This document shows, in pieces, positions 21,001 to 30,000 of a stretch of 64,000 nucleotides of DNA. The stretch comes from an uncultured bacterium. GTDB taxonomy: Bacteria; Verrucomicrobiota; Verrucomicrobiia; Limisphaerales; UBA8199. The DNA lies in assembly GCA_963749495.1 (NCBI GenBank), contig CAVVMW010000023.1, positions 768,001 through 832,000 of the forward strand, read 5' to 3'. The position numbers are program-made. The first letter of the stretch is position 1. Every line of letters starts with the position of its first letter.

Positions 21001-24000
21001 TGGGTCAGTGGCAGGATCGATGGAGATGAGTCACGCCGTAAGGGTTTCGACTGCATAGCGCACCGGCCGACGGTCACAGTGACGAGGATTCTCAGGTCCG
21101 ACACGGCAACACCGCCCGATCTCCCCGCGCGAGAATTGATTTCGATGAACTGCTACAGTGCAGGCATGTCGCACTGGCTTTGCAATCAGCCGACATCCAA
21201 CGGCGCTCGCGGCAGAAATGCATGCTGTAACCTCTTCGCGCGGACTTGCTGAACAGACCGGAGTAGCCGAGAAGAAAATCGTTCGCCGCCTGCGCTGCGG
21301 CAACAGCGTTCAGCGTTATGACGCTGGGCGCAAACACCAGTTCATCGTCCACGTACGCTTGTCGTTGGCGTTCCCGCTCCGTGAACGCTTCTTGTTGCAG
21401 CTTGGCGGCAGAGATAAGCCCGTTGCAAAGCAGACAGCCGCCGCCGGCATGAGGCAACACGGGTCGCGAAACCGCGAAGATTTCACCGATTTCGCCGGTT
21501 TCCTTGTCAACGGGAACCTTCGAACCGACTTGGACGCCCGGGATTTGGTACTGATGCACAAGGGCGTTGAAGACCAATCGAGCTTGTGCAGAGTCGGCGC
21601 AAAGAAAAATGAAATCGGCGTCTTTGAGCAACAACGCAGCGTCGCGTCGCGTGACGTCGTCAACCACCGCACGATAACGGATTCTCGGATTTGCGCGTTT
21701 TGCAACACGCTCTGCGACCTTCACCTTGAACCTCGCCAAGCGGCGGCCCAACCTTTGCATCCCACTCCAGTTCATCATCGAGAGGAACACCCGGGCGTCG
21801 CACGGCCGCGAGCCGACGACGCGCGGTTGGTTGCTCGGATCGAGTTTGTCAAAGTCAATTCCGACAATTTTGCCGATTCCCAGGTGCGCCAGCCATTCGT
21901 TCAGGAGCGAGCCGGCGCCGCCGAGTCCGATGATGCCCACCTTTGCTCGCTTCAGGATTTCCTGACCTCCCGCTCCAAAAATCAGGGACTGGCGGTGATA
22001 AAGTGGAATGGCCGCGATGGGTGACTTCTGTGGTGACGGGTAAAGCCGGCGGATGTTTTGTCCGATGACAACGAGGTTTTCGAGCGGGAACACACCCTCC
22101 ACAGTCCAGATGCTTCCCGCGACGGCTTTACGCGCAAACACGAGCGCGCCGACCGGGCCCCCTCTGGTAATATCCAGCAGCGCCGGGTAGCCGCGACGGT
22201 GCGACTTCACGTCGGCCGTGGAAAAACCCACGAAATCATCTCCCTCGTGACAATGCACGGCGAGGTAGCACAAGTTCTCTTGCGCGCAATGATGCGAAAC
22301 ACGGGCGACGAAATCGGCCGTGAGCGCCCGATAGCCATACTTTCCCGGCACGTAATCAATGCCGTCTTTCGCAACGAAAACCTCGCGGGCAAGCAAGCGC
22401 GCTTCGCGGCCTGATTCGCAAATGCCGGCGGCAATAATCGCTCCGTGCTCGTCAGCGTCGCCGGGGAACAAATGGGACATGAGTTGCTCGAAGAGCGTCT
22501 CCGAAATTCTGAACGTAAATTTCTTCATTGGCCTCTTATCCAATCCAACACTTTTGCCAGCTTGAGAGCGGCGGTGTCCGTTTCCGGATTCAAACGATTC
22601 GAGCGGCGTGACAGCATGATTGCCGGTTCGGTCGCCTTCGGCGTTCGCCACTGGTTGTTCAGGTTGAACCCGCCGCCGAGCGAACGTCCGTCCTTTCGTT
22701 TCAATGCCGGAATGCAGAAATGCGGATAAATGTCCGCGAACGGATATTGAAACGTGATTGGGAACGCGAGCCACGACACAGACGGCTCGTACTTATCGCC
22801 AAGGATCAGGTCGTGAACCTTGACGTAGGCACCGCCGTCTGTGTCCGGGTCAACGTCCATCTGGCGACGGGGAAATGCGACTCGGATTTCCGCGATCGCT
22901 TGTTGAACCGCGGCTGTCACGGCTAGGAGTTGTCGTCGGGCGTGACACAACGGAATTCCTCGCAGTCCCTGAGCGTGACTTTTTCGGAGTCGCCGATGGA
23001 TGCGCCCAGGGTGCCGTCCGGCTTCACTTTGTAGAGAACGCCATCAAGGGTGATTTTTACCTGCTGCGCGATGGCGGTCTGCTTGATTTCGAGACCAGTG
23101 ACCCGCCGTTTGTGGAATGTCACCGGATAATTGTTCACCTTCACCGTGATGGTGACGCGCTCCGTGCGAAACACTGGGCCGTCGGCGAAGTTGGCCGCCT
23201 CGTCATCCGCGATTGGCTCGTCGTGCGGCAACTCGTAGTCACGCAGCAACTCGACTTGCGCTGAAAGCTCGAACAGCCGGCGCAAGGTCGCACCAGTCTG
23301 GCGGGGATCAAGAGTGATTTCCCATTCATCGTCCACCACGAATGCACATTTCGCCGGTTCATGGCATGGCGGTGGCGGCGCGGCTTCGCAGAGCGGGATC
23401 ACTCGGAAGACATTTCCCGCTGCCAGATCGATCTCGGCCTCCTCCGCGACGACCACGTCATTGCGGGATTGATAATCGCGCACCAGCACGAAGCCCGCAC
23501 CGATGCCGGCCTGGTCTTTGATGGTCTGGGCGGTCACGACCCGTCGAGGCATTGAAATCGCCCGATCGTTGACGAGAACCGCCCACTTTGGCGCGGGGCG
23601 GCAATCAGGCGCTTCCTTCGCCAGGGCTTTCTCCTGGCCCATTTGAATTTCCGAATCAGTCATAATCATAACTTCGATTTTCTTTGTGTTCTGGACGCCG
23701 CCGAAGTTGTTCATCCGTCTGCGGCGAGCCGTTCCAATAGGGATTGCTGAAAACGCGGCCGACCGTGGGGCAAAGAATTTGCCGTTCTGCGAAAGATTTT
23801 CCCCCAAAGGCCAAGACTTGTTAGCCTGTTACGTGTGAATGGACCAACTATGGACGACAACGCAATGAGCAAGCTGGGTGCGGTGGACTGGGACGATGCC
23901 GCGCCCCGGCTGCTTCAGTTTGCGCGCCGGTGGGCCGCTGGCCTTTACTATTGGTGCGAAGGCACCGCGCTGCCCAACGGGATGGGCATCGAGGACGTCG

Positions 24001-27000: not shown

Positions 27001-30000
27001 AAATGCCAATGCTTTATCGGCACGGGCCGTATTTCAATGAGCCGCTGCCGGACGTGGTGTTCTTCTACCCTGATGGATTGCCTCGCGATATACGCGAAAG
27101 ATTTCTGGAGCAACTCGACCTGGAAATCCTCAAACAGACCGGATCGAAGATGAACGTCATCGCGCGCCGCTCGTACCGAATCGGACAAGCCGAGCGGAGC
27201 GGCGCGTCGCTGCTCGCAACCATCAAAACAGTTATTGGCGAACAGCCCGGAATGTTCCTGGCACTCGTCGCTCTGTGGGATCGTTTCCTTGACAGCGTGC
27301 ATCCGAATTTGAAGGACGCGGTGAAAGGCCGCCCTTCGCAATGTGTCACCGAGCGGGTGCTGCGGACGATTGCGAATACTACCGACCCGATGCGCGCCAC
27401 AGGGCGCGTCCGAAACCTCGCGCTTGGCGTTTTGATTGCCGCAGGCGTGCAACCCTGGGTCTTGTCGGAAGAACTGCACCACGACGTTTACATCGGCATC
27501 AACACTCTGCATGGCCGGGTCAGTTATCATTTTCTTTTCGGCAAGGGTGGTCGCCAGGTTTTGACCTCGCTCGGAGCGTCCATTAAGCGGGGACGAACAC
27601 AAGAGTCGCTGGACAAAGTGGAACTTCGGACAAGAATCGAGTCCACTGTTCGCGAGATTCATCAGGCCGGCCATCCGCTTCGCAGCGTGGTCGTCCATCG
27701 CGACGGACGCTGGTGGAAGCGTGAAAGTCAGGCGCTCAACGAAGCGGCCTCGAATTTGGTTCGCGACAAGATTCTGGCAAAGGATTGCGCCATCGGGGTG
27801 GTCGAAATCCGCAAGAGCCATTTTCCCGTCCGGCTGTTCACGAAAGTTGGGCCGCCGGCAAATCAGCTGCTGAATCCGCTTCCCGGCACTCACTTGGTGC
27901 TCGATCAGCAACGCGCTTTGCTTTCGACGACGGGCAGACCCGGCGCATGGGACAAGAGCGAAGGGCGAACCGCGGGAACGCTTCTGCTGAATCTCATCGA
28001 GAGTTCCCCGCCGATGGACATCGAGGCTTTGGCGGAAGACGCTTACCGGCTCACGCATCTAAATTGGAGTGCGCCCGAGATTGAAATTTCCGTCCCGGTC
28101 ACGATTCGGTGGAACGACGATGCGCTGCGGGCTTCGCTCGTTAGCCAGCAGCAGGAGGAAGATGAAACTTACGACGAGACGAACGAACTTAAGATGGAAG
28201 GAGCGAACGTATGAGTCTATTGGGATTCATGTCCGTCAAGTTGGACAAGCAGCAAACGTTGCTGGAACGGCTCAACGAGGCGCTGCTCATGGTTCAAAGC
28301 GAATCGCTGGGCCGGGCCGCCGACCTCGGCTTCACGTCGGCGCAAATTGCCGCGGCGAAGGAAACGCTGCGCGAGTTCGTCAATCGCTTGCGGACAAAAC
28401 TGGCGGGCAACCAGGACAACGAAGAATTGAACGTCCTGGTGGCGCGAATTCGCGAAGGCCAGTTCGAGCTGAATGAATGGCTGGAGGAATTAGCGCAACT
28501 CGAAACGCAGTTGGCGCAACCCGGGCTGCTGCCGCTGACGGCCATTCCCACGCTGGAAGGAGTTTTGGCGATACTGGATGAAGAACTGACTGCCGAATTC
28601 AACCGGCTTTATTCGCGATAAGCACAAGGATGGGGCATGCCTTCATACCGGATCGCCAAGACGGCGGAATTGGATATACTCTTCGATTGGCTGGAGGATC
28701 AACTCCGCCAGCTGCGGCAGACCAATCCTGACCATCGCGTCGTCCTTGATTATCTCGACCAGCAATACACCCAGGCCGAGAACAAGCTTGCGCTCCTCCA
28801 GGCTTTGCTGGCGCTCAAAGACCCGAACCTCGACAAACGCGCCGACAGGCTGGCTCACGACTTGTCTCGCCACGTTATTCCGACGGCGAACCACTATATC
28901 GCGGGTCTGCAGCGGCAAGGCCCGCAGGACCGGCGAGTAAGGCAGGTGCTGCTGCGTCTGTGCCAGCGGCTCCGGTTGGATTGGATTGAAGACATCCTGG
29001 TCTGCTTGCTGCGGGATTTGGCATTGCTGGCTGAATACCGCGGAATCTTCGCCATCCCGGTGTTCTACGGCCCGCCGCATCTGCTGGAGACAATTCTCGA
29101 AGTCCCCGGAATTTATCACGAATTCGGTCATAGCGTCTTCGCGAGGGATGACGTGTTCCTTCGCGAAATGTCCTCAATCGTGAAGCGCCATTTCGTCCAA
29201 CTGAAACAACAGGCCGGCCCGATTCCACCGGTGCAGAAGGCGCTCCGCGACCAGGAACTCGACCGTGCCGCCAACTCCTGGAGTGCGCTGTGGTTGGCCG
29301 AGGTTTTCGGCGACCTCTTCGCGGGATATGTTTGCGGGCCGGCCAATCTGGCTTCGATGGTGGACCTGGGCCGCGCTCAAGGTTTTCCTCCCTACCTGCT
29401 CGCCTCAAACTCACACCCGCCAAACTGCGCTCGCGTCCTGGTTTCCTATTTCGCCCTCTCCGACCAGCAACGTCAGCATCCAACCGTGCAAAAAATCCAC
29501 GACGCATGGCAGCATTTTGCCCGGGGATTTACACCCGGCCAGGATTATAAGTTGCGTTGTGCTGAGGATCTCTTGAGGTCGGTGGCCAACGCGGTCAATG
29601 CCCTCATCGCGCAACACCTGCCAAATATTCCTCGGTACACAAAGATGCCTCCTGATCTGGCATCGGCGCGGGCTGTGAAAGCCGGTATCGCCCTTGAAGA
29701 CCTTATCAATGCCGGGGTGACGATTCTCTTTGAAGCGCCGGCTGAATTTTCTGCCTGGCAGCAATCCTCTCGCCTGCTGATCGCGTGAGCACTGGCACAT
29801 CAACTTTGCCTTCGTAAACGTAAGCGGAGCCTTCTGTAATCCGTGCAACGTTCTGGACGGCTGCTCGCGCTACCCGGTGGAACGAGAGATACAGGAAGCG
29901 ACAGAGTCGGCCGATGCCGAGCTGGTGCTAAAACGGGCCAGGGAGAAGCACCCCAGGCCCGGCCGCAGGTTATTGTTCCGCACAGGTGTTGGCGAAATTA

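Follow-up and report, generated by a model that had tools for sequence, protein, structure and literature searches.

The window, by which the whole analysed stretch of 64,000 nucleotides is meant, contains at positions 21092-29788 an 8.7-kb block of nine genes arranged in two divergent operons. The minus-strand operon comprises genes of a BubA-like multi-ubiquitin protein, a 141-aa ORF and a JAB-E1 fusion. The plus-strand operon comprises g76, g77 and genes of a Cas4-family nuclease and a VbAgo-type Argonaute (pAgo), followed by g80 and g81. All genes were found where an earlier note on this DNA had placed them. The window is a defence island, with Ssp/Dnd-like genes, PRTRC genes and AbiV located on both sides of the block. 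The features are as follows:

21092..22528, minus strand: BubCD-like fusion of an N-terminal JAB/JAMM-type peptidase domain and a ThiF/E1 adenylation domain (ThiF PF00899, 2.8e-26)
22525..22950, minus strand: 141-aa ORF, putative E2 (BubB) by position, no family match
22923..23669, minus strand: BubA-like multi-ubiquitin protein (PF14452 Multi_ubiq, 3.1e-11)
23670..23849, no strand: shared divergent intergenic region with the recombination breakpoint of the Bub and pAgo modules (nucleotide homology limits and sequence)
23835..24437, plus strand: g76, 195-200 aa, tentatively a sigma-70/ECF-like or HTH regulator (HTH_28 below cut-off)
24434..24805, plus strand: g77, 123 aa, no family (iterated HMM: 20 ORFs of related loci)
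24836..25831, plus strand: Cas4-family PD-(D/E)XK nuclease, ACE-like, 331 aa (PDDEXK_1, 4.1e-25)
25815..28214, plus strand: long VbAgo-type pAgo with intact catalytic residues and an acidic C-terminal tail, 799 aa (9v65_A)
28211..28621, plus strand: g80, 136-aa helical protein (17-sequence alignment, conserved termini)
28637..29788, plus strand: g81, 383 aa, three-helix bundle and zincin-like domain (HExxH motif, structure models)

Over residues 12-793 of its 804-aa ORF, the pAgo matches VbAgo (PDB 9v65_A) at E 7.8e-207; it also matches the PADLOC model pAgo_II at 1.3e-56. Its DEDD tetrad (D557/E597/D630/D742) is invariant among 16 aligned sequences, and the earlier identification of the protein as a close VbAgo homologue is borne out. 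Isolated VbAgo was reported to be fully active in vitro in DNA-guided RNA cleavage, so its catalysis does not depend on the partners. The Cas4-like nuclease covers the whole PADLOC model Aga_Cas4-like_Nuc (6.8e-23, 2-306 of 308) and possesses a DxK motif at residues 209-211, as well as Cys27 and Cys312/315/321.

The assignment of g76 is tentative, as its Pfam match to HTH_28 (E 0.0021) lies under the cut-off and a profile comparison with the PDB gave no match; the nearest named Atlas clusters carry Sigma70_r2/r4_2, which is a lead only. The start of g77 overlaps the stop of g76. No family match to g77 was found in Pfam, PADLOC or NCBIfam, and its position alone suggests that it might possibly be an anti-sigma factor.

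The ubiquitin-like genes form a Type I-like Bub (6E/DUF6527) operon without BubE. The JAB-E1 protein, 478 aa long if read from MKKF (the open frame extends to 22774), contains the JAB-type motif HCHEGDDFVGFSTAD (HxHx8SxxD) at residue 92 and matches PADLOC E1-E2 at 3.9e-10. It has no Prok-JAB match in Pfam itself; such matches were found in the orthologous fusions of loci L008, L041, L045 and L035. The multi-ubiquitin protein probably starts with the ATG at 23669 (its frame stays open as far as 23807), ends with ...TPDDNS and is 40% identical to the ubiquitin-like (Ubl) portion of the L008 BubAB fusion. The 141-aa ORF is a putative E2 by position. It is kept in L001 (82%) and L026 (60%), shows no match in Pfam, PADLOC or NCBIfam, and its comparison with the Prok-E2_E domains of fused BubAB proteins by BLASTP and hhalign was not significant. 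DUF6527 was not found in G000, nor did tblastn with the Runella BubE as a query reveal it in any other locus.

The g80 gene, whose start overlaps the pAgo stop, encodes a protein with conserved ends (N-terminal MSxLGF and C-terminal RLYSR), for which neither a family match, nor an Atlas match, nor an HTH was detected. Equivalent small proteins starting with MSxxG are found in Runella, Rhizobium, cyanobacterial and haloarchaeal loci. In g81, an N-terminal three-helix bundle (about residues 1-110), resembling interaction modules, precedes a zincin-like domain. The motif residues of g81 are HExxH (161-165), W215, E222-x-x-C/G-D226, G234 and HPP(260-262)xxxR266. Residues H161, E162, H165 and E222 are invariant in an alignment of 22 sequences, and 147-148 of 148 family members share the HExxH...ExxCD signature without change. 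The signature is of the gluzincin type, with a Glu-x-x-x-Asp helix located about 57 residues downstream of HExxH.

The AlphaFold model of g81 has a pLDDT of 93.1, and a second model 96.4. Foldseek gave no match at E<=1e-3, the rows for ZMPSTE24/Ste24 having a probability of 0.87/0.80/0.77 at E 0.5-0.6. Among the ten best VIA-align matches of the C-terminal domain, nine belong to the zinc metallopeptidase families M48 and M13, with Z of 5.1-6.2 and hence below the tool's caution line of Z = 8; PprI/IrrE is among the weak matches (Z 3.7). No peptidase family of Pfam, NCBIfam or PADLOC matches g81, Peptidase_M78 included. A profile search returned 645 representatives at E<=1e-3, and a Pfam family was assigned to 0 of 27 sampled. 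The figures given earlier for g81, namely 39 homologues, the four invariant residues, a similar pLDDT and the ZMPSTE24 rows, were reproduced. Motif conservation and weak fold matches, almost all to zinc metallopeptidases, make it reasonably likely that g81 is an active metallopeptidase; any one specific substrate would be an improbable guess.

The synteny sample was derived independently and consisted of 64 metagenome loci, two genome loci and five plasmid records, only loci with enough flank being counted. The counts next to g81-family genes were 39 of 44 loci for pAgo, 25 of 30 for Cas4, 17 of 28 for g76, 19 of 31 for Bub genes and 43 of 56 for g80. Dereplication at 90% g81 identity reduced the 71 loci to 51 clusters, with pAgo in 30/35, Cas4 in 19/24, g76 in 11/22 and Bub in 13/24. 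Among the 11 clusters missing g76 are those of L063, L068 and L069, where an HTH_3 gene is present instead. Bub is missing from 11 of the 24 clusters with room and from 7 of the 14 with both flanks long; it is therefore not obligatory. Five g81 loci with room have no pAgo (L027, L039, L055, L065 and L066).

In a pAgo-anchored search of PLSDB, a small ORF and a g81-family ORF lay beside the pAgo in 5/5 records (profile E-values 6.8e-20, 3.6e-18, 3.4e-15, 9.6e-7 and 4.7e-6). In two haloarchaeal plasmid records, the order of the small gene and the g81-like gene is kept though the pair is convergent to pAgo, so it behaves as its own unit. Downstream of the gene of the characterised RslAgo (WP_013921749.1), and on the same strand, come a 125-aa gene, a homologue of g81 and a Bub operon catalogued as Type II. 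The pair is very probably a functional partner of pAgo, judging by these neighbourhoods.

Relatives of g81 also occur in other company. In G048, a genome of the same phylum, a small ORF lies together with a g81-like gene and a gene of dCTP deaminase, divergent from an operon of HTH, Multi_ubiq, 145-aa and ThiF genes; no pAgo is present, and DUF6527 was absent from the ORFs scanned around this Bub-like operon. L066 encodes a fusion of a g81-like zincin with dCTP deaminase.

The comparison with L001 gave one HSP over 21096-29782 (80% over 8700 nt) with unrelated flanks; the block moves whole, its ends being exact at the E1 and g81 stops. Nucleotide homology with L008 and L006 begins at 23790 and runs to 29784, which places the Bub/pAgo breakpoint at about 23790, inside the shared intergenic region. 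The pAgo of the window is 83% identical to that of L008 but the E1 only 25%, whereas L008 and L041 share 42% in pAgo and 80% in E1; the trees of pAgo and E1 conflict with support of 100/100. Three Bub builds were found beside the cassette: unfused BubA, 141-aa protein and JAB-E1; a BubAB fusion and JAB-E1; and BubA, DUF6791-ThiF and DUF6527. They are placed in three ways: divergent upstream, convergent downstream (L026) and co-directional downstream (L068, L035). The PRTRC genes (31725-34021) lie outside the transferred block, and the earlier concern that the proximity of ubiquitin-like genes could partly reflect an element shared with PRTRC is not borne out.

The larger independent set of loci, the plasmid records and the module exchange support the central reading of the earlier note, in which pAgo belongs to a conserved cassette with Cas4-like, HExxH and ubiquitin-like genes, the linkage being one of gene neighbourhood only. 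On the same basis, the pAgo core, g80/g81 and Bub probably form one functional system. It is unlikely that two independent defence systems, one formed by the pAgo operon including g80/g81 and the other by the Bub operon, became neighbours through hitch-hiking and clustering in islands. The frequent absence of Bub, the other defence genes on both sides, the separate histories of the modules and the reported location of Bub operons in mobile elements and, more generally, in defence loci (preprint 10.1101/2024.11.21.623953) would agree with independence. However, separate histories with kept immediate adjacency are what selection for linkage predicts. Whichever of the three builds and three orientations is present, Bub directly adjoins the cassette without an intervening gene, the block was transferred with exact ends, and a g81 relative stands again by a Bub-like operon in G048 without pAgo. 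Moreover, among 401 genomes sampled from the phylum, pAgo was found in only 1 and the g81 family in only 2, which makes repeated adjacency by chance improbable.

Nor does it seem likely that g81 is primarily a Ubl peptidase of BubE-less Bub operons, processing BubA or removing conjugates, with a secondary link to pAgo. The peptidase-type motif, the missing DUF6527 and the g81-like gene adjacent to the G048 operon speak for such a role. Against it, the pair occurs without Bub in the 7 of 14 clusters mentioned, including L046, L063, L069, L070 and two haloarchaeal plasmids, and a peptidase for processing is already available in the JAB domain of the E1 fusion. Runella has both g81 and BubE, which argues against a simple replacement of BubE by g81.

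A purely transcriptional circuit, in which sigma/HTH-like g76, anti-sigma or repressor-like g77 or g80, and g81 (a regulatory protease like CapH/CapP or ImmR/ImmA) do no more than control both operons and pAgo acts alone, is quite improbable. A regulator, sigma-like g76 or HTH_3, is near-constant, PprI/IrrE appears among the fold matches, and a small protein with an HExxH protein of about 380 aa resembles CapH+CapP in size and order. But g81 has no M78 match and g80 no HTH, the pAgo operon has the pair at its 3' end and not upstream, L035 has a separate HTH_3 and M78 pair besides g80/g81, and the dCTP deaminase fusion suggests direct control of an effector protein, not of a promoter. Weak fold matches, the absence of peptidase family models and the N-terminal bundle would allow g81 to be a non-peptidase, its metal site serving nucleic-acid binding or cleavage or a guide-loading or release scaffold and g80/g81 being a structural subunit of a pAgo complex, but the near-invariant gluzincin-type signature and the predominance of M48 and M13 structures make this rather doubtful.

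As one system, the block would be a composite, horizontally mobile defence cassette whose three modules are selected to stay together. The first would be a D-R Argonaute core, ACE/APACE-like, whose Cas4-family nuclease would supply or trim small DNA guides, with which the pAgo would cut complementary invader RNA; g76 and perhaps g77 may regulate transcription starting in the divergent promoter region that both operons share. In the second, g81 might be a zinc-dependent endopeptidase switch, restrained by g80 or acting on it, and, as motif, fold and gene contexts suggest, might turn the activity of a neighbouring effector (pAgo, or dCTP deaminase in relatives) into a proteolytic signal. The Bub operon (BubA, putative E2, JAB-E1) may be coupled to this second module, g81 supplying the missing peptidase activity or Ubl conjugation serving as a downstream arm.

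A part of the cassette, the sigma/HTH factor with Cas4-like nuclease and pAgo, is already known for D-R pAgos: Lisitskaya 2022 (PMC9360449) describes D-R pAgos with a Cas4-like nuclease and an HTH or sigma-70 factor, a sigma-70 family factor being reported in operons of the PnyAgo group. Cas4-family partners of pAgo were published as ACE1/ACE2 (PMC12094033), with ACE/APACE systems reported in 2025; guide processing by such a partner was shown only for ACE1, which is distantly related. The operon of the window differs from the Bub operons described so far, all of which carry BubE according to the preprint, in the absence of this usual serine protease; the same preprint associates CapH+CapP with Bub operons. 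Three features appear to be new: the g80/g81 pair as a broad companion of pAgos, including RslAgo-type and haloarchaeal ones, and hence not VbAgo-specific; the combination of g81 relatives, dCTP deaminase and a Bub-like operon where no pAgo is present; and the three Bub variants in three arrangements beside the cassette, with incongruent pAgo and E1 trees and a breakpoint. The pairing of pAgo and Bub across phyla may provide a biological context for the Bub pathway, which so far lacks a function.

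Two divergent gene sets were recovered between positions 21092 and 29788 by ORF listing, translation and family matches, confirming that the gene block reported in an earlier note on this DNA is real. The minus-strand set is a ubiquitin-like operon, and the plus-strand set is a cassette built around a prokaryotic Argonaute (pAgo).

Genes of the block at 21092-29788
21092-22528, minus: JAB-E1 protein, 478 aa; ThiF/E1 domain (2.8e-26), preceded in the N-terminal part by a JAB-type HxHx8SxxD motif (residue 92)
22525-22950, minus: 141-aa ORF without any family
22923-23669/23807, minus: multi-ubiquitin protein, BubA-like (PF14452, 3.1e-11)
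23835-24437, plus: g76, sigma/HTH-like, with a sub-threshold HTH match only
24434-24805, plus: g77, 123 aa
24836-25831, plus: Cas4-family nuclease, 331 aa (PDDEXK_1, PF12705, 4.1e-25; PADLOC Aga_Cas4-like_Nuc, 6.8e-23 over the whole model)
25815-28214, plus: pAgo, matching VbAgo
28211-28621, plus: g80, a helical protein of 136 aa
28637-29788, plus: g81, an HExxH protein of 383 aa

The pAgo matches VbAgo (chain 9v65_A) with E 7.8e-207 over nearly the whole length, residues 12-793 of the query being aligned with residues 3-775 of the chain. The DEDX tetrad is kept in the PIWI domain, where D557, E597, D630 and D742 are invariant among 16 aligned sequences, and the window protein carries an acidic C-terminal tail, as VbAgo does. 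According to the accessible parts of the two VbAgo papers, this enzyme performs DNA-guided cleavage of RNA targets (PMC10448046, PMC13219720) and is auto-inhibited by its acidic tail (PMC13219720). It is likely, from the close homology to VbAgo, that the window pAgo is also a DNA-guided RNA cutter.

The conservation of the cassette was assessed in 64 loci obtained by scanning metagenome contigs with the g81 alignment and in two loci from a genome scan with pAgo; gene presence was scored by tblastn and iterated profiles, solely in loci with enough flank. The pAgo was present in 39/44 of such loci, the Cas4-like gene in 25/30, g80 in 43/56, g76 in 17/28, and multi-ubiquitin or E1 in 19/31. Because many contigs are near-duplicates, dereplication at 90% g81 identity was applied, which reduced 71 loci to 51 clusters; the pAgo was then found in 30 of 35 clusters, Cas4 in 19 of 24, g76 in 11 of 22 and a bacterial ubiquitin-like conjugation (Bub) operon in 13 of 24 (7 of 14 where both flanks were long). 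Five g81 loci have room for the pAgo and do not contain it (L027, L039, L055, L065 and L066), of which L027 is a remnant at a contig end, and L065 and L066 encode distant, longer proteins. The reading of the earlier note, that the pAgo belongs to a conserved multi-gene cassette, is supported; whatever is said here on function is drawn from motifs, models and the gene context.

The comparison of the window with the homologous locus L001 revealed a single 8,700-nt HSP (21096-29782), which ends exactly at the stops of E1 and g81 and is surrounded by unrelated flanks. Of 401 genomes sampled from the phylum, only that of the window itself (G000) gave the pAgo, and two gave the g81 family. This rarity, together with the shared block between unrelated flanks, indicates that the cassette is rare, patchy and mobile. 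The search for flanking repeats around the block gave short, chance-level matches only.

Broken copies of the cassette were also observed. At L002 (9064-13650), it is split into many short ORFs (Cas4, two pieces of pAgo, g80 and two pieces of g81), which suggests frameshifts or decay; NurA/HerA and phosphoesterase genes lie downstream. The decayed cassette of L035 (1505-14992) has an N-terminally truncated pAgo and intact g80 and g81, and Cas4 was not found in it. Upstream of the truncated pAgo lie two transposases and the reverse transcriptase of a group II intron, and an HTH_3 and Peptidase_M78 pair, followed by a JAB-ThiF E1, is located downstream on the same strand.

Since all locus counts start from g81, a plasmid collection was searched from the pAgo side. 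In all five plasmid records that make up this sample, a small ORF and, after it, a g81-family ORF lie next to the pAgo. The E-values of the plasmid g81 proteins against the g81 profile were 6.8e-20 for Runella, 3.6e-18 for Rhizobium, 3.4e-15 for a cyanobacterium, and 9.6e-7 and 4.7e-6 for two haloarchaea; in the two haloarchaeal records the pair faces the pAgo in convergent orientation, its internal order being unchanged. The small proteins all start with MSxxG or MSL and possess a basic, R-rich C-terminal tail. The Runella pAgo (WP_013921749.1, locus L068) is RslAgo, for which the available text of PMC9360449 reports DNA-guided cleavage of RNA. No match of 0.8 or more was found for g80 in the Atlas, and a complex prediction for pAgo and g80 from their alignments, made without controls, scored 0.00 against a mark of 0.32, which speaks neither for nor against binding.

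The Bub and pAgo modules have discordant histories. The window and L008 share 83% identity in pAgo, 75% in g81 and 76% in Cas4, versus 40% in BubA and 25% in E1; between L008 and L041 the identity is 42% in pAgo, versus 78% in BubA and 80% in E1. The phylogenetic trees placed L008 with the window for pAgo and with L041, L034 and L037 for E1, each with 100/100 support, and the nucleotide homology of the window and L008 begins at 23790, within the shared intergenic region. The Bub operon has been swapped but kept. It could be supposed, with lower probability, that the pAgo and Bub operons are independent neighbours: the separate histories and the clusters without a Bub operon are compatible with this alternative, and on the other side stands the exchange of modules with immediate adjacency retained, which is a prediction of selection for linkage and not a proof of it. 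The earlier note had also worried that a PRTRC ubiquitin-like system could partly account for the nearness of ubiquitin-like genes. This source was rejected, as the PRTRC-type pair (31725-34021; Prok-E2_D, 1.1e-31, and ThiF, 7.2e-11) lies outside the transferred block shared with L001.

Bub systems, formerly 6E/DUF6527, are divided in the available text of two preprints (10.1101/2024.11.21.623953,.623966) into Type I, comprising BubAB (Ubl-E2), BubCD (JAB-E1) and BubE, and Type II, comprising BubA, BubBD (E2-E1) and BubE, a DUF6527 serine protease stated to be present in all Bub operons; the enzymes conjugate the Ubl via oxyester intermediates. The window BubA is a beta-grasp Ubl by its PF14452 match, and the 478-aa protein joins a JAB-type motif to an E1 domain; Prok-JAB was matched only in its counterparts from L008, L041, L045 and L035 (Pfam E 1e-4 to 9e-4) and not in the window protein. 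The 141-aa ORF occupies the position of the E2 (BubB) and gave no Pfam match, a BLASTP E of 0.96 and an hhalign probability of 0.3 against the Prok-E2_E domains of fused BubAB proteins, those of L008, L041 and L047 matching Prok-E2_E. No match to DUF6527 (PF20137) was found in G000, whose completeness is 88%, and therefore the window operon fails one defining Bub feature. Judging by domain content, it is classed as a Bub operon without BubE, with the 141-aa ORF as a putative E2.

Three Bub builds adjoin the pAgo cassette. The first has unfused BubA, the 141-aa protein and JAB-E1 (window, L001, L026), and the second has a BubAB fusion (Prok-E2_E) and JAB-E1 (L008, L041 and L047 by Pfam, L017 and L045 by similarity). 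The third, of Runella, consists of Multi_ubiq (2e-38), DUF6791-ThiF and DUF6527. The operon is divergent and upstream in most loci, convergent and downstream in L026, and co-directional and downstream in L068 and L035. A further alternative is that g81 is a substitute for BubE. The operon without DUF6527 next to g81 in the window is what this would look like; a tblastn search with Runella BubE across the loci matched L068 only, and in L068 BubE and a g81-family protein accompany the same pAgo.

The Cas4-like nuclease contains the DxK motif (DWK at 209-211) and Cys27 together with Cys312, Cys315 and Cys321. One N-terminal and three C-terminal cysteines (an Fe-S 'iron staple') define ACE nucleases in the accessible part of PMC12094033, and, by length alone, the 331-aa protein is nearer the ACE2 average (313 aa) than that of ACE1 (278 aa) reported there. 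The best family match of g76 is HTH_28 with E 0.0021, below the cut-off. Its nearest named clusters in the Atlas carry Sigma70_r2/r4_2 in 19-40% of members, which is a lead only, and the g76 profile gave no match among PDB sequences. A purely transcriptional circuit is a further, rather unlikely alternative. The promoter scan found two promoters versus 2.7 expected from shuffles, which is not above the shuffles.

The profile search with g81 over 1.84 billion representatives revealed a family of 645 proteins at E<=1e-3, of which 67 reach E<=1e-30. g81 has no Pfam, NCBIfam or PADLOC match, its best match among PDB sequences has E 1.3, no Pfam family was found among 27 sampled relatives, and the protein does not fall into the curated peptidase families (M48, M13, M78 and others). 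It bears the gluzincin signature, HExxH with a downstream Glu as the third ligand: H161, E162 and H165 are kept in 147/148 family members and E222 and D226 in 148/148, and the full set of H161, E162, H165, W215, E222, D226, G234, P261 and R266 in 145-148 of 148 near-full-length members. The earlier note had described this signature with a confident model and a weak likeness to M48 peptidases, and its g81 figures were all reproduced on re-run.

In the g81 model (pLDDT 93.1), a three-helix bundle at the N-terminus is followed by a three-stranded sheet and helices. Because fold searches with the whole protein were swamped by the bundle, residues 112-383 were modelled alone with 92 sequences (pLDDT 96.4). 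Zinc metallopeptidases made up nine of the top ten VIA-align matches of this C-terminal domain, at Z 5.1-6.2, below the tool's caution line: BepA (Z 6.2, rmsd 4.1, 125 aligned), Zmp1 (Z 5.9), two PepO entries (Z 5.9 and 5.7), neprilysin (Z 5.4), ZMPSTE24 (Z 5.4), 3c37 (Z 5.3), Ste24p (Z 5.1) and H-gal-GP (Z 5.1). A second structural comparison against PDB gave weak zincin matches only (BACCAC_01431, Z 4.3; PprI, Z 3.7), and Foldseek found nothing at E<=1e-3 for both models. In view of the low Z and the lack of a significant Foldseek match, g81 was called zincin-like, of a new family, and not an M48 member; the modelled fold and the signature suggest that it is probably a gluzincin-type protein. 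That g81 is a non-peptidase scaffold agrees with the low structural scores and has to be set beside the near-invariance of the HExxH and Glu residues.

Relatives of g81 occur in other contexts. In G048, another genome of the phylum (L076, G048:C1:245500-265000), a 170-aa ORF, a g81-like gene (HEIGH) and a dCTP deaminase (DCD, 7e-34) at 8502-14039 are divergent from HTH_3, Multi_ubiq, a 145-aa protein and a ThiF E1, and neither pAgo nor Cas4 is present at this locus. L066 (8857-10653) encodes a 599-aa protein with a g81-like core (HELAH ... EVFCDLF) and a C-terminal dCTP deaminase-like domain (8.8e-19). Therefore, the zincin goes with different effectors and, independently of the pAgo, with a Bub-like operon, and it is mainly for these reasons that it is seen as the link between modules. 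The associations with dCTP deaminase hint at a regulatory module that can be reused in prokaryotic immune systems.

Other observations concern these and further loci. An HTH_3 and Peptidase_M78 fusion is encoded upstream in L066 (3714-4811). L039 (3-2073) carries g80-g81 without pAgo; upstream there are a UvrD fragment of 147 aa and OLD/Gabija-like ORFs (AAA_15, TOPRIM). Among viral contigs, a single weak g81-like match was found near a terminase gene, and pAgo was not detected; this contig (L073, 9218-10474) encodes a 419-aa protein with the g81 core (HEMGH ... EEIFCDLF) and also terminase, portal and Mu-F-like genes.

The window is a defence island. The genes at 8182-16425 on the minus strand are of the phosphorothioation-type modification/defence kind, which we take to be Ssp/Dnd-like.

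Other features of the island
5086-7824, minus: NERD nuclease-related domain, then two protein-kinase domains, 913 aa
8182-9003, minus: Aminotran_5
9031-9921, minus: PAPS_reduct
9873-13205 and 13189-14787, minus: two large proteins without family
15502-16425, minus: DUF4007
19488-20471: 328-aa ORF just outside the block; KxDG-type motif, match to ATP-dependent DNA ligase very weak (E 0.0058)
36091-36972: 294-aa ORF with an RRM_1 RNA-recognition motif (1.3e-21)
49331-50002, minus: AbiV-type HEPN protein (1.1e-29)

The proposed mechanism links the two operons through g80/g81. The Cas4-like nuclease would feed the pAgo, g76 and perhaps g77 would regulate the divergent promoters, g80/g81 would act as a protease switch tied to the effector, and Bub conjugation would be coupled to this switch. 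In the full form of this proposal, which we regard as rather unlikely, g80/g81 would be a new defence coupler physically linking an effector (the RNA-targeting pAgo, or dCTP deaminase in relatives) to Bub conjugation, so that guide-dependent recognition of invader RNA leads to proteolysis and to the attachment of Ubl to proteins of the invader or the host. If the coupler existed, the orphan Bub pathway would gain a trigger and a biological role, and there would be crosstalk between Argonaute and ubiquitin-like systems in prokaryotes.

The partners pAgo, nuclease and regulator belong to known kinds. As far as the searches reach, there is no description of the g80/g81 pair or of the recurrent linkage of pAgo and Bub. 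Term searches of the available text of the two VbAgo papers found no discussion of gene context. Ryazansky 2018 listed Cas4 among pAgo partners, found a consensus operon not definable, and does not mention ubiquitin, ThiF, peptidase or sigma. Ubiquitin and ThiF are absent from the consulted text of PMC9360449 and its three supplementary text files, ubiquitin, peptidase and Verrucomicrob from that of PMC12094033, and Argonaute, Piwi and nuclease from that of the Bub preprints (10.1101/2024.11.21.623953,.623966). The Runella operon beside RslAgo is catalogued as a Type II Bub with the Argonaute unremarked (PMC11601596, supplement 2). The literature search, subscription-only papers and figures aside, found no co-mention of Argonaute with DUF6527 or with Bub operons in the prokaryotic sense.

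VbAgo, RslAgo and relatives are under development as stand-alone RNA-targeting tools, and in nature they belong to a cassette of four to nine genes. g80 and g81, which have no family name, accompany pAgos in Verrucomicrobiota-type, Bacteroidota, Alphaproteobacteria, Cyanobacteria and haloarchaeal records. For Bub, detailed biochemistry is available, yet the accessible text of its discoverers' preprints reports that phage protection was not found and leaves the biological role open (10.1101/2024.11.21.623953,.623966); the link to pAgo and the zincin, recurrent and recombination-resistant as regards pAgo and Bub, provides a concrete hypothesis. The plasmid of Runella slithyformis DSM 19594, on which a catalogued Bub operon lies beside a characterised pAgo, is a concrete test system.

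The nearest known operons are those of the D-R pAgos, PliAgo and PnyAgo groups, in which, as in the window, a DNA-guided RNA-cleaving pAgo follows a PD-(D/E)XK nuclease distantly related to Cas4, and an HTH regulator or sigma-70 family factor is also carried; Lisitskaya et al. 2022 found operon composition conserved within each group (PMC9360449, available text). In contrast to the window, g80, g81 and an adjacent Bub operon are not named in that text, and its Fig. 1b may draw downstream genes unlabelled. APACE1 and APACE2 combine a long-A pAgo with an Argonaute-associated Cas4 family enzyme and share with the window a Cas4-family nuclease (DxK, 1+3 cysteines) encoded immediately ahead of a long, catalytically active pAgo. 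According to the accessible part of Bobadilla Ugarte et al. 2025 (PMC12094033), ACE1/APACE1 is characterised and APACE2 is not; ACE1 processes (trims) DNA guides as a heterodimer with the pAgo, and APACE1 pAgos cut DNA, whereas VbAgo cuts RNA.

Bub operons resemble that of the window in a Ubl with up to three beta-grasp domains, in their location in mobile or defence loci and, for Type I, in the JAB-E1 fusion, unlike the E2-E1 fusion of Type II (10.1101/2024.11.21.623953,.623966, available text). Verrucomicrobium sp. 3C in the Bub Table S1 has the build of the window, with unfused Ubl and E2 and a DUB-E1 fusion. The window BubA ends in ...DDNS, whereas in Bub systems a glycine is exposed by cleavage.

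g81 shares with the M48 (BepA, Ste24/ZMPSTE24, 3c37) and M13 (Zmp1, PepO, neprilysin) peptidases an active-site helix that carries HExxH and is preceded by a three-stranded sheet, and a second helix that provides the downstream Glu. The M48 motif is ExxAD, which the E-x-x-x-D of g81 resembles. g81 differs in being soluble and in having the N-terminal three-helix bundle and the extra invariant W215, G234 and HPPxxxR. CapH/CapP and ImmR/ImmA (IrrE/PprI) resemble g80/g81 in that a gene for a small protein precedes one for an HExxH protein of ~350-400 aa beside defence operons, including Bub, and in the weak structural match of g81 to PprI (Z 3.7). They differ in that g81 has no Peptidase_M78 match, g80 has no HTH and the pair lies at the operon 3' end; in L035 and L066, HTH_3/M78 genes occur separately from the g81-type genes.

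In SPARTA/SPARSA short pAgo systems, long-B BPAN systems and the type III-E Craspase, a nucleic-acid-guided sensor is co-encoded with an enzyme that hits something other than the target, and Craspase couples RNA recognition to a caspase-like protease. In these systems the sensor is inactive or the protease fold is different, whereas in the window a pAgo with a DEDD tetrad is found with a zincin and a Ubl operon.
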